Source: Betaproteobacteria bacterium (GTDB taxonomy: Bacteria > Pseudomonadota > Gammaproteobacteria > Burkholderiales > JACQAP01). From it: a stretch of DNA of 37,969 bases. Position numbers and translations under genes: made by a program. Below, one piece after another: positions 22,899 through 25,031 of this stretch (positions are counted from its first letter, which is position 1; every line of letters starts with the position of its first letter). The notes under the pieces are model-generated. The model saw nothing but the letters and a program-made list of their open reading frames with translations. It did no database searches and was not told the DNA's origin. The stretch spans positions 1 to 37,969 of the forward strand of contig JANXPQ010000539.1 in NCBI GenBank assembly GCA_025357235.1. Reading direction: 5' to 3'.

Positions 22899-22928
22899 AC
22901 TATCGATGCACACGTGCATGGCTGTCAA
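22899..22928 (-). promoter_or_regulatory. Candidate sigma70 promoter of the TRAP operon (TTGACA-N18-GATAGT) with an embedded palindrome
   Basis: Perfect -35 TTGACA (22923-22928) and a 4/6 -10 (22899-22904). The spacer contains the palindrome ATGCAC-GT-GTGCAT (22906-22919). Confidence 0.35.
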
Positions 22929-22971
22929 GCGGCCTCGCGGAGAACGGGAAACGGAAAAATCGAAAGGGGAG

Positions 22972-23047
<76 letters not shown>

Positions 23048-23064
23048 ACGGTACTGCACACAAC

Positions 23065-23234
23065 TGGACCCCAAGGCGGGGCAGGACCTCGCGATCCACT
23101 TCCTTACGATGGCCGATACAAGGATTTTAGCTCCGGCATAGCCTTGCACTCACGTGAAAGGTTAGCCTTCACTGAAACAAGCGATGAAGGCGCTTGTTTG
23201 CAGTCCTCTGCTCTACCGACTGAGCTACTTGGCC
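23065..23234 (-). pseudogene. Second, disrupted tRNA-Phe-derived copy, 17 nt upstream of the intact gene
   Basis: nt 23234-23201 are 34/34 identical to tRNA-Phe positions 1-34. A 72-nt insert follows (23200-23129). Then AAAATCCTTGTATCGG (23128-23113) is 15/16 identical to positions 35-50. The remaining T-arm/acceptor sequence is only loosely similar (...CCGCCTTGGGGTCCA). Confidence 0.6.
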
Positions 23235-23365
23235 CCCGTTTACAGCTCTTATCCGATGGGGAATCGAATCGCTTTTTTGCGTTGCCGGTTGGGAAATCGT
23301 CGGCGCTCGGAAAGCGCGGCATTCTACCCGAAAACACCTGCGGGCGGGCAATCCGGATTGCCCGC

Positions 23366-23400
23366 AAAAGAACAGAAAAGCCCGCATCGGCGGGCTTTTC
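23366..23400 (-). terminator. Rho-independent terminator after the MFS gene
   Basis: GCCCGC-CGAT-GCGGGC followed by TTTTCTGTTCTTTT on the minus strand, about 20 nt after the stop. Confidence 0.75.
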
Positions 23401-23417
23401 TTTAGCAGGAATCTGCT

Positions 23418-25031
23418 TCAGTTCTGATGAATGTCCCTGTCCTTGGTTTCCCTGAGGAATAGGGTCCCTATCACCAACGTGACCACCGCGACGACAATCG
23501 GATACCACAGCCCATAATAGATATCGCCCGTGGCCGCCACCATCGCCGTCGCAGTCAACGGCAGCATGCCGCCGAACCAGCCGTTGCCGATGTGATAAGG
23601 CAGGGACATCGAGGTATAGCGGATCCGCGTCGGGAACAATTCCACCAGGAACGCGGCAATCGGCCCATACACCATGGTCACGTAAATGAGCATGATCACG
23701 AGGATCAGCAGGGTCATGCCATAGTTGACCTTGCTCTTGTCCGCCGGTCCTGGATAGCCAGCCGCTTTCAACGCTTCCTCCACCTTCGCCTTGTCCCAGC
23801 CTTCGAGCGTGACTTCCCCTACTTTGGTGACCACGGCTTTGCCTTCAATTGCGGGAAGCGAAGTGAAAGACAGACCCTGTTTGGTCAAATGGTCCTTCAC
23901 CTGGTCACATTCGGTGAACTTGCTCCAGGGTCCGACGAACAGATGAAAGCCGCAATCGTTCGCGGCCACCGATATCTGCGTCTTCTGCTGAAATTCCTCG
24001 AGCGCCGGATTGACGTTATGGGTCAGTCCGTGGAACAGCGGAAAGTAGGTCAGCGCCGCGATCAGGCAGCCCGCCAATATGATCTTGAGCCGCCCGATCT
24101 TGTCCGACAGCCAGCCGAAGAAAATGAAAAACGGCGTGCCGATCAGCAGTGAAGCGCCGATCAGGATATACGCCGTAAGGTAGTCCAGCTTCAATGTGAT
24201 GATCAGGAAGAACAGTGCGTAGAACTGGCCTGTGTACCAAACCACGCCCTGACCTGCAGTGGCGCCGAGCAGCGCCAGCAACACGAATTTATTGTTCGGG
24301 TAGCGCAGGAAACTGTCCGTCAACGGCGCCTTCGATCCCTTGCCTTCGGCCTTCATCTTTGTGAATACCGGCGACTCTTCCAGCTTTAGCCGGATGTAGA
24401 CGGAAAATGCCAGAAGGATCACCGAGAACCAGAATGGAATCCTCCAGCCCCAATCGGCAAAAACCTTGGCATCCATTTCCAGGCGGCAGGCGCCGATCAC
24501 CAGCAGCGCGAGAAAGAACCCCAAGGTCGCCGTGGTCTGAATCCAGCTGGTGTCGTAGCCGCGCCGATGATTCGGCGCGTGTTCGGCCACATAGGTCGCC
24601 GCACCGCCATATTCACCGCCGAGCGCAAGCCCCTGCAGCAGCCGCAATGACACCAGCAGGATCGGGGCACCCCAGCCGATGGCCTCGTAGGTCGGCAGCA
24701 AGCCGACTGCAAAGGTCGCGCCGCCCATGACAATAATGGTGATCAGGAACGTGTATTTGCGACCCACCAGGTCACCGATACGACCGAACACCAGCGCCCC
24801 GAATGGACGGACCAGAAAGCCGGCGGCATAAGTCGCAAACGCCGAAAGCAGGGCGGCCGTTTCGTTGCCTTTCGGAAAGAACAATGCCGCGAAGAACGGC
24901 GCCAGCGTTGCGTACAGATAGAAGTCGTACCACTCGAAAACCGTGCCCAGCGAGGAAGCGAAGATGACCCGCTTCTCTTCCGGCTTGAAGTCCGGATGAT
25001 GCTTATCGTGGGTCGTTGCGGTTCCGGTCAT
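23418..25031 (-). CDS. MFS transporter, metabolite:H+ symporter (MHS)-like, with a ~100-aa extra-membrane insertion
   Basis: 537 aa with MHS-type motifs (GRIGDLVGRK after TM2, GWLSDKIGRLK after TM8). A hydrophilic segment at aa ~337-436 lies between predicted TM9 and TM10. Confidence 0.9.
   Translation of the reverse strand: MTGTATTHDKHHPDFKPEEKRVIFASSLGTVFEWYDFYLYATLAPFFAALFFPKGNETAALLSAFATYAAGFLVRPFGALVFGRIGDLVGRKYTFLITIIVMGGATFAVGLLPTYEAIGWGAPILLVSLRLLQGLALGGEYGGAATYVAEHAPNHRRGYDTSWIQTTATLGFFLALLVIGACRLEMDAKVFADWGWRIPFWFSVILLAFSVYIRLKLEESPVFTKMKAEGKGSKAPLTDSFLRYPNNKFVLLALLGATAGQGVVWYTGQFYALFFLIITLKLDYLTAYILIGASLLIGTPFFIFFGWLSDKIGRLKIILAGCLIAALTYFPLFHGLTHNVNPALEEFQQKTQISVAANDCGFHLFVGPWSKFTECDQVKDHLTKQGLSFTSLPAIEGKAVVTKVGEVTLEGWDKAKVEEALKAAGYPGPADKSKVNYGMTLLILVIMLIYVTMVYGPIAAFLVELFPTRIRYTSMSLPYHIGNGWFGGMLPLTATAMVAATGDIYYGLWYPIVVAVVTLVIGTLFLRETKDRDIHQN

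Follow-up and report, generated by a model that had tools for sequence, protein, structure and literature searches.

A small structured repeat interrupting a tRNA-Phe copy belongs to a family dispersed among Betaproteobacteria

How does a copy of a tRNA gene come to be split within its anticodon by a structured insert, while its 5' half stays identical to that of an intact gene lying immediately downstream? The arrangement occurs on the minus strand of a 37,969-nt stretch of DNA, the whole of which is referred to here as the window (Betaproteobacteria bacterium; assembly GCA_025357235.1, contig JANXPQ010000539.1), where a 170-nt copy of tRNA-Phe ends 17 nt upstream of the intact tRNA-Phe(GAA) gene. 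An earlier note on the window had offered several readings: the relic of an intron-bearing or element-disrupted tRNA rescued by duplication, the scar of an element that recombined in the anticodon loop, or a tRNA-derived leader RNA transcribed together with the functional tRNA. It had also set out in advance that the copy should be regarded as an inert duplication scar if related genomes held a single tRNA-Phe or randomly different debris at this place, the copy gave no stable transcript and the insert did not covary.

Layout and fold of the interrupted copy

The features of the locus are given here from 5' to 3' along the minus strand.

23418-25031, MFS / Sugar_tr gene, upstream of the region holding the terminator-like hairpin and the motif
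23374-23401, minus strand, intrinsic-terminator-like hairpin (12-bp stem, then a T run) at the end of the upstream MFS transporter gene
23314-23329, minus strand, promoter-like motif GGGTAGAATGCCGCGC, conserved among loci and lying 95 nt before the unit, with a -10-like TAGAAT ahead of a GC-rich stretch
23201-23234, minus strand, copy of tRNA-Phe positions 1-34 (acceptor 5' strand, D arm and anticodon stem 5' strand, through G34)
23129-23200, minus strand, 72-nt insert, one copy of the GAAA-loop module defined below (matched by covariance models R1 and R2)
23171-23204, minus strand, P1 hairpin of 13 bp with a bulged C, the outer 4 bp using tRNA nucleotides ACUG (from the sequence and the centroid fold)
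23135-23167, minus strand, P2 hairpin, GGCUAACCUU..CAC-GUGA-GUG..AAGGCUA(U)GCC, base helix with one bulged U (from the family alignment)
23113-23128, minus strand, copy of tRNA-Phe positions 35-50 (rest of the anticodon loop, stem 3' strand and variable region)
23065-23112, minus strand, diverged tail without a T arm, retaining a short trace of the acceptor 3' strand and containing two small hairpins, GGAUC-GCGA-GGUCC and CCCC-GCCUU-GGGG
23048-23064, minus strand, 17-nt spacer, formed by the last part of a canonical tRNA-Phe 5' leader (..TTGTGCAG..AGT type; from leader comparison)
22972-23047, minus strand, intact tRNA-Phe(GAA) (ARAGORN; Rfam tRNA, 71.6 bits)

The description of the copy given in the earlier note proved largely accurate. 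Its first 34 nt (23234-23201) match positions 1-34 of the intact gene (23047-22972) at 34 of 34 places, the insert read directly from the minus strand (23200-23129) is exactly 72 nt long, and the 16 nt that follow (23128-23113) agree with positions 35-50 at 15 places. Within the anticodon stem the junction reads ..ACUG^(72 nt)^AAAAUCC.., which places the insert between G34 and A35, at G^AAAA. The copy is also unable to close a cloverleaf, as the note had concluded: ARAGORN called the intact gene alone and made no tRNA call on the copy, and the Rfam tRNA model RF00005 scored the copy (23134-23234) at 17 bits, against a gathering score of 29 and the 71.6 bits of the intact gene. With its T arm absent, the copy falls short of the complete cloverleaf above the curated threshold that we take to define a functional tRNA. 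Its last 65 nt retain a mere 9/10 remnant of the T-stem and acceptor 3' strand (CCG-CCTTGG); both tail hairpins reported previously are present, and this type of tail is shared with one unit in the related genome G029 (L016_u1). The assembly holds a single tRNA-Phe gene among 32 tRNAs, and the four neighbouring genes encode MFS, DctP, DctM and GroEL proteins.

Of the two hairpins assigned to the insert in the note, the 13-bp helix that pairs ACUG(C)AAACAAGCG with CGCUUGUUUCAGU is real, and no other helix of the insert region survives in the predicted centroid fold; the second, GTGAAGG-CTAA-CCTTTCAC, is an alternative pairing peculiar to the window copy, and gives way in the family to the P2 pairing listed above, with GUGA as its apical loop. 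The fold of the whole unit is not unusually stable (z = -1.56).

A covarying module and its distribution

The 72-nt insert is one copy of a small non-coding structured repeat, which we term the GAAA-loop module, and which forms a dispersed family found also far from tRNAs and in many betaproteobacterial lineages. Copies are about 60-100 nt long and comprise, in order, the P1 hairpin, CAGUGAAG, the P2 hairpin with one bulge, and CCGGAGCUA. In the aligned inserts P1, often capped by a GNNA-type loop, is followed by UUUCAGUGAAG, P2 and GGAGCYA; P2 itself consists of GGCUAAC, a variable hairpin and GUUA(U)GCC, giving a 7-bp base with one bulged base, and a third hairpin is sometimes present at the bulge. 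The module is predicted to fold as a three-way junction whose outer stem is contributed by a hairpin of the host sequence, which in the window would be the anticodon stem.

BLAST searches for the repeat in its own genome gave weak matches only, and covariance models were needed to reveal the family. The first model, R1, was constructed from 20 copies at tRNA loci and scored the window insert at 93.1 bits. The second, R2, was constructed from 51 copies, none from tRNA-Phe loci, and returned 23125-23205 as its only significant match in the window (79.3 bits, E = 1.5e-17, positions 1-80 of 80), a test of membership that is not fully independent, since the R2 seed copies had been gathered with R1. 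We assign the insert to the family on this full-length R2 match together with its compensatory helices and its location at G^AAA(A) of a host loop.

Covariation was evaluated in 82 distinct copies, using shuffles and slid partners as controls. Paired cells made up 80.9% of the total compared with 63.8% in shuffles, both-sided changes occurred in 20 of the 24 pairs, and the covariation score of 0.371 exceeded both the shuffle value of 0.130, with none of 500 shuffles reaching it, and the scores obtained with slid partners (0.063 or less). Both-sided changes affect each of the 10 inner P1 pairs across the family, and the upper P2 stem varies freely in sequence with compensation. In P2, GGC/GCC is replaced by GAC/GUC in 4 of 20 sequences, the 3-bp helix there being 100% paired; these values derive from a hand-checked alignment, the helix being mis-registered in the alignment of 82 copies. 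Alignments fitted to a model favour structure, and we argue that the signal is real because of the slid-partner controls and the freely varying upper P2 stem. G.U pairs outnumber A.C combinations by 84 to 20, and selection therefore acts on the fold of the tRNA-sense strand, either as RNA or as that strand of the DNA.

Known structured RNAs offered no identity for the module. A scan of 22900-23450 with 4227 Rfam families (E-values up to 10) placed no intron, ribozyme or riboswitch family on the copy, the overlapping matches being the sub-threshold tRNA and three weak, sub-threshold sRNA or leader matches; the same search of nine further module loci retrieved only tRNA, 5S rRNA, RNase P RNA and weak unrelated matches, so that in the window and at these nine loci the module is without an Rfam family. 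A group I intron, a known ribozyme and a riboswitch are ruled out by these scans together with the 72-nt size of the insert and its lack of a group I core, and the suggestion of a group I intron relic is thereby set aside. A full-text search, reaching part of the published literature, found no description of the module, and the family is apparently undescribed.

Interrogation of related genomes with R1 revealed the module in 33 of 37 genomes of the same genus (0-33 copies each, four genomes being free of it) and, across the order, in 38 of 151 sampled genomes and 27 of 99 genera. The genus tally includes one unpublished genome (G032) and the order tally another (G062), with the same conclusions when they are left aside; these unpublished genomes also enter into the tallies of relatives and of Y1 transposases given below. 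In the genome of the window itself, R1 located further copies on contigs C436, C19, C567 and others. Public DNA was scanned with two patterns. The looser of them yielded 80 loci, with 65 R1 matches; it is permissive and admits chance matches from unrelated phyla, from which R1 served to separate real copies. The strict core pattern matched at least 121 public stretches, nearly all labelled Betaproteobacteria, the lineages among the matches listed being Gallionella, Sulfuricella, Sulfuritalea, Thiobacillus, Rhodocyclaceae, Nitrosomonadales, Polaromonas and Methylophilaceae. Three viral contigs matched a core pattern, and BLASTN with a 221-nt composite copy gave no match in plasmids. What appeared to be a single odd tRNA pseudogene thus marks a widespread structured element of Betaproteobacteria.

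tRNA-Phe loci in relatives and the choice of target

A BLAST-type search of 60 relatives identified interrupted tRNA-Phe copies in many genomes of the same genus. Among 28 same-genus loci (L009-L038 minus L033 and L036, which come from other families; L037, from the unpublished G032, has no unit), 13 carry interrupted units, arranged one to three in tandem with one to three modules per unit, and the first 34 nt of these units differ from the resident tRNA at 0-3 places. Two more loci (L020 and L021) carry degenerate units, and the other 13 have neither form. Three tandem units occur in G016, and one, two or three inserts may stand in tandem in one anticodon loop (L026, L016, L023). An exact-pattern scan of public genomes detected interrupted tRNA-Phe in 19 stretches, nearly all from uncultured Betaproteobacteria or Burkholderiales MAGs. 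Because the interrupted arrangement recurs in related genomes, a chance origin is excluded. The loci of these relatives hold a recurring unit with compensatory changes in its insert, in place of random debris, and the inert duplication scar that the note had named beforehand does not describe them; its suggestion of an element-disrupted tRNA copy beside an intact duplicate is borne out.

The resident tRNA of G029 carries three derived changes; those located in positions 1-34 recur in both units, which show 0 mismatches to it there. The units thus undergo concerted evolution with the resident gene, probably through unequal crossing-over or gene conversion, which would account both for the presence of one to three units and for the perfect 5' half. 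The leader ending seen in the 17-nt spacer also directly precedes single-copy tRNA-Phe genes at L022, L025, L029 and L030; since the tails and the spacer end like these single-copy leaders, the units have the appearance of duplicates of leader plus tRNA.

The promoter-like motif (up to 3 mismatches) is present at 24 of the 30 loci L009-L038, once per locus, and where units exist it always lies upstream of the first unit and never between unit and tRNA. A promoter consensus scan did not flag GGGTAGAATGCCGCGC; from its -10 element and GC-rich discriminator we infer that it is a promoter. As the assembly has a single tRNA-Phe gene, the unit would then be transcribed whenever tRNA-Phe is made from the shared promoter. 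The idea of a leader co-transcribed with the tRNA therefore agrees with the position of the one motif upstream of the first unit, and transcription itself is probable on the same grounds.

The insertion point recurs in other hosts. Modules occur at G^AAA(A) of tRNA-Phe, both within the genus and in families f8 and f42 (L227, L231), of tRNA-Ser(UGA) at L234, L197, L218, L087, L278 and L294, and of tRNA-Ser(GGA) at L236, where four are arranged in tandem; the tRNA-Phe leader of family f4 (L226) holds two modules, the second running into the AAAATCC of the anticodon stem. GAAA is found in the anticodon loop of three of the 32 tRNAs of this genome, namely tRNA-Phe(GAA), tRNA-Ser(UGA) and tRNA-Ser(GGA). 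In every tRNA case at least one unit, composed of the 5' portion of the tRNA, the module and a brief 3' segment, stands upstream of an intact gene. Beyond tRNAs, the one RNase P RNA gene detected in the MAG G187 (264.8 bits, with a 113-nt insertion) holds a module in its P9 hairpin loop, and further modules lie at tandem repeats of the 5S rRNA 3' end (L228, L229), in the last codons of dksA and pheS, and, on the opposite strand, in the N-terminal GxGxxG region of a Rossmann-fold gene. On contig C567 of the window's own genome, a repeated hairpin is seen both empty and filled with the module. The rule of G^AAA in hairpin loops is unusually sharp for a target: it predicts which tRNAs are struck, and it also brings the module inside essential RNAs (tRNA and RNase P RNA) and beside 5S rRNA.

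In the stable RNAs (tRNA-Phe, both tRNA-Ser types, RNase P RNA and 5S rRNA) the module is in the sense direction in every case; copies antisense to the gene that they interrupt occur at L091, L070 and L118. A search for the exact junction pattern gave 0 stretches for antisense tRNA-Glu(UUC), the loop of which likewise contains GAAA when read in antisense, against 8 for sense tRNA-Phe, a comparison that requires exact matches and in which the tRNA-Phe matches come mostly from one lineage. Relative to neighbouring ORFs the bias is mild (same strand in 34 of 56 upstream and 35 of 53 downstream), these orientations resting on crude longest-ORF calls by which at least one known sense case, L177 (dksA), was mis-called.

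Insertions are often accompanied by local duplication, and tandem arrays of 83-nt units also exist. Of 87 distinct public copies, 30 repeat the 30 nt downstream of the module core within the 110 nt upstream of it (0-3 in shuffled pairings), and 20 have an inverted copy (0-4 in shuffles); many sites, inspected by eye, read as a target copy, a short inverted copy that pairs with it, the module core, AAA, and the target copy again. Either the duplication is coupled to insertion, for example through template switching at GAAA/UUUC microhomology, or insertions into functional sequence persist only when duplicated. Inspection of the junctions showed no terminal inverted repeats at the module ends and no target duplication of fixed length, only A-runs being shared at the junctions. 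A MITE of the DDE type is ruled out on these features.

Mobility, rival readings and known systems

We regard it as probable that the module is a non-autonomous structured repeat, mobile now or formerly, that is recognised as a folded single strand. It would recognise G^AAA in a hairpin loop in this form, which would make the three GAAA-bearing tRNAs recurrent targets. Because tRNA-Phe is essential and present only once, an insertion would be viable only where the gene had been duplicated. At the window locus, tRNA-Phe would have been duplicated with its leader, the upstream copy would have received the module between G34 and A35, and the interrupted copy would then have lost its T arm and become a pseudogene. 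Remaining in the 5' leader of the functional gene, the pseudogene would be transcribed from the shared promoter, and unequal recombination or gene conversion with the intact gene would keep its 5' half identical and expand it to one to three units. No recurrent neighbouring enzyme came to light: an all-against-all BLASTP comparison of the ORFs (70 aa or longer) flanking 64 copies revealed only housekeeping paralogues (ABC ATPases, short-chain dehydrogenases and 2-hydroxyacid dehydrogenases), with no transposase, reverse transcriptase or recombinase linked to the module among them. Among genomes of the order, the Y1 HUH transposase (PF01797) occurs in 28 of the 38 that have the module and in 66 of the 113 that lack it, and gave no match in the module-rich G039, G077 and G016.

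A function for the host could account equally well for the near-perfect 5' half, for the conservation of the junction bases and for the module in a sole RNase P RNA gene. In its full form, a domesticated RNA in which the tRNA 5' half and anticodon stem scaffold one to three modules, and in which the leader RNA released by RNase P, together with modules in other transcripts, binds a conserved factor or ligand, seems to us unlikely. It would suit the nearly invariant junction sequences among covarying stems, the excess of G.U over A.C, the place of the unit downstream of a strong-looking stable-RNA promoter motif, a 5' half held to 0-3 mismatches while the tail diverges, and the persistence of the arrangement in at least four families of the order. 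It is harder to reconcile with the 13 of 28 genus loci that lack even a degenerate unit, the four of 37 genus genomes that lack the module, its patchy distribution across the order, its many unrelated contexts on either strand relative to neighbours (34 of 56 upstream ORFs on the same strand), and a copy number that varies from 0 to 33 as in a selfish repeat. Quite improbable, in our judgement, is a very small intron or self-cleaving ribozyme spreading by reverse splicing and copying back into DNA. Removal of the insert at G^AAAA does restore the exact anticodon loop, and the sense orientation of every stable-RNA insertion, the occupied sole RNase P RNA gene of G187, the arrays of 83-nt units and the conserved unpaired bases at the three-way junction are in keeping with it, as is, weakly, the excess of sense tRNA-Phe over antisense tRNA-Glu(UUC) stretches, given that the former are mostly of one lineage; but excision from units that have no T arm would yield no working tRNA, insertions seem not to pass silently given the target duplications beside 30 of 87 copies, the copies at L091, L070 and L118 run antisense to the interrupted gene, and no ribozyme or intron family is matched. 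Similarly doubtful is an element mobile at the RNA level, whose three-way-junction RNA would dock on GAAA loops of abundant RNAs, insert at G^AAA by reverse splicing or ligation, and return to DNA by template-switching copying. The base of P2 bears what we take to be a likeness to a GAAA-tetraloop receptor, and such an element, if real, would explain the sense orientation, the scar-free junctions, the occupied sole RNase P RNA gene, the arrays of units and both the direct and inverted duplications.

Two readings carried over from the note fare worse. A neutrally decaying tRNA-Phe pseudogene filled with random sequence would explain the lost T arm, the diverged 3' tail and the missing cloverleaf, but is very improbable for an insert that belongs to a covarying family found in hundreds of places and a unit that occurs in tandem and is shared between species. 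Integrases are known to cross over in anticodon loops, which speaks for the scar of an attachment site where an island or phage with an integrase recombined; we hold this to be scarcely credible, as the four neighbouring genes (MFS, DctP, DctM, GroEL) include no integrase, the 5' half of the tRNA is duplicated and not its 3' end, matches comprise three viral contigs and no plasmid, and the module is dispersed at non-tRNA sites.

Interpreted as a probable mobile repeat, the module invites comparison with several known systems. REP/BIME sequences and the Correia elements (NEMIS) of Neisseria are short non-coding hairpin repeats present in few to many copies; like the module they are mostly intergenic or at gene ends and form mosaics with other short repeats, and they are co-transcribed with their neighbours, as the module probably is. 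The module differs from both in its three-way junction, its invariant unpaired junction bases, its strand-specific covariation and its insertion at G^AAA within tRNA and RNase P RNA hairpin loops; it further differs from Correia elements in having no terminal inverted repeats or TA duplication, and from REP/RAYT systems in that the counts of PF01797 given above provide no clear link to a RAYT/Y1 transposase. Rickettsia palindromic elements are likewise small structured repeats tolerated inside functional genes, RNA genes included, but they belong to another lineage, have another sequence and are read through in frame, whereas insertion of the module usually goes with a partial duplication through which one copy of the gene stays intact. 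IS200/IS605 elements and their miniature derivatives insert beside a short fixed motif without target duplication and are recognised as folded single strands; a hairpin with an unpaired base and a distance of about 10 nt from hairpin to element end are features in common. The module nevertheless has two dissimilar hairpins, of which P1 is variable, Y1 genes show no clear link to it, and its flanking direct and inverted target duplications are not an IS200/IS605 feature. Group I introns of bacterial tRNAs share the anticodon-loop position and the restoration of the loop on removal of the insert, but measure about 200 nt or more, against 72 nt here, and the module has no group I core, no Rfam match and a host copy devoid of a T arm.

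Tandem arrays of tRNA genes and pseudogenes, kept uniform through unequal crossing-over, resemble the units described here in their number (one to three in tandem) and in their concerted change with the resident tRNA. The module units are set apart in that each is defined by an inserted structured element and that the arrangement recurs for tRNA-Ser(UGA) and tRNA-Ser(GGA). The module offers an explanation for the half-tRNA tandem arrays upstream of tRNA-Phe and tRNA-Ser genes that confuse the annotation of MAGs, a naturally occurring example of a foreign RNA fold borne on a tRNA scaffold, and a tractable system in which to study the movement of a gene-less element of about 70 nt and the origin of its direct and inverted target copies. 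By eye, GGCTAAC..GTTA(T)GCC and the repeat-rich contig C567 also bear a resemblance to integron attC sites.

Modules in and beside stable RNA genes

Insertion of the GAAA-loop module extends to genes for stable RNAs, of which the RNase P RNA gene of G187, a metagenome-assembled genome (MAG) of ~2 Mb, provides one example. Coordinates of that gene and of the leader of the interrupted tRNA-Phe copy in the window:

G187, contig C66, 4791-5272 (locus L384:1501-1982): RNase P RNA gene with module
Window, 23235-23313, minus strand: leader running from the promoter-like motif to the interrupted tRNA-Phe unit

A 113-nt insertion containing the module occupies the P9 hairpin loop of the G187 gene, which nevertheless covers the full RNase P RNA model (264.8 bits) and is the only such gene detected in that genome. 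Downstream of each of two 5S rRNA genes on contig C1 of G116 (L228 and L229), a 169-nt unit occurs three times, made up of the 3' end of 5S (from AAAGTAGG on), a terminator, the same 5S end in inverted copy, and the module. Two interrupted tRNA-Phe units occur at L231 in G077; the first (L231:40-290) carries an extra D-loop insertion of ~90 nt, and after every module comes a 3' piece that forms a palindrome of the 3' strand of the anticodon stem. Two alternative types of tRNA-Phe leader are seen in the genus. The one present in the window holds the conserved hairpin TCGAT-TCCCC-ATCGGA, with ..GTAAACGGG after it.

Modules in protein-coding genes

The last codons of dksA-like genes constitute a repeated module site across several lineages (L048, L103, L177, L215/L224, L240), with six to seven modules arranged in tandem at L048 with a period of 83 nt. 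At three further loci (L091, L070, L118) a Rossmann-fold gene holds the module in antisense orientation within its N-terminal coding region, and the gene's first 33 nt, which are interrupted, occur in duplicate. An ATGA overlap joins the end of the remnant ORF to the new start codon at L091, an arrangement that would allow translational coupling.

Flanking repeats and a repeat-dense contig

Subfamilies of the module are distinguished by their surroundings. One is always lodged between runs of the CGTGAC repeat, with a conserved AUGCGG..CCGCAU hairpin after the module:

L170, L199-L205, L213, L216, L222; in the window's own genome, L040, L041, L044: CGTGAC-flanked modules

A second is flanked by AAGGATGA repeats (L171-L183), and a third occupies the loops of long hairpins of the type CCCTTCTCCCC / GGGGATGAGGG.

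The MAG containing the window is fragmented into 582 contigs, with a completeness of 92.7%, contamination of 6.25% and only 32 tRNA calls, none of them tRNA-Glu; statements about copy number or absence in this genome are therefore soft. Its contig C567 (L167:300-6600) is dense in repeats and its ORFs are small. A long composite repeat, exceeding 150 nt (155- and 187-nt families) and centred on the hairpin GGTYACCTTTCTTG..CAAGAAAGGTAACC, occurs there at four sites spaced 1.4-2.9 kb apart; two copies bear the module inserted at CAAGAAA^GG, one of the two doubled or nested. The contig looks cassette-like. It also contains arrays of short repeats, the TTATGG-hairpin and CTCGTCAC.
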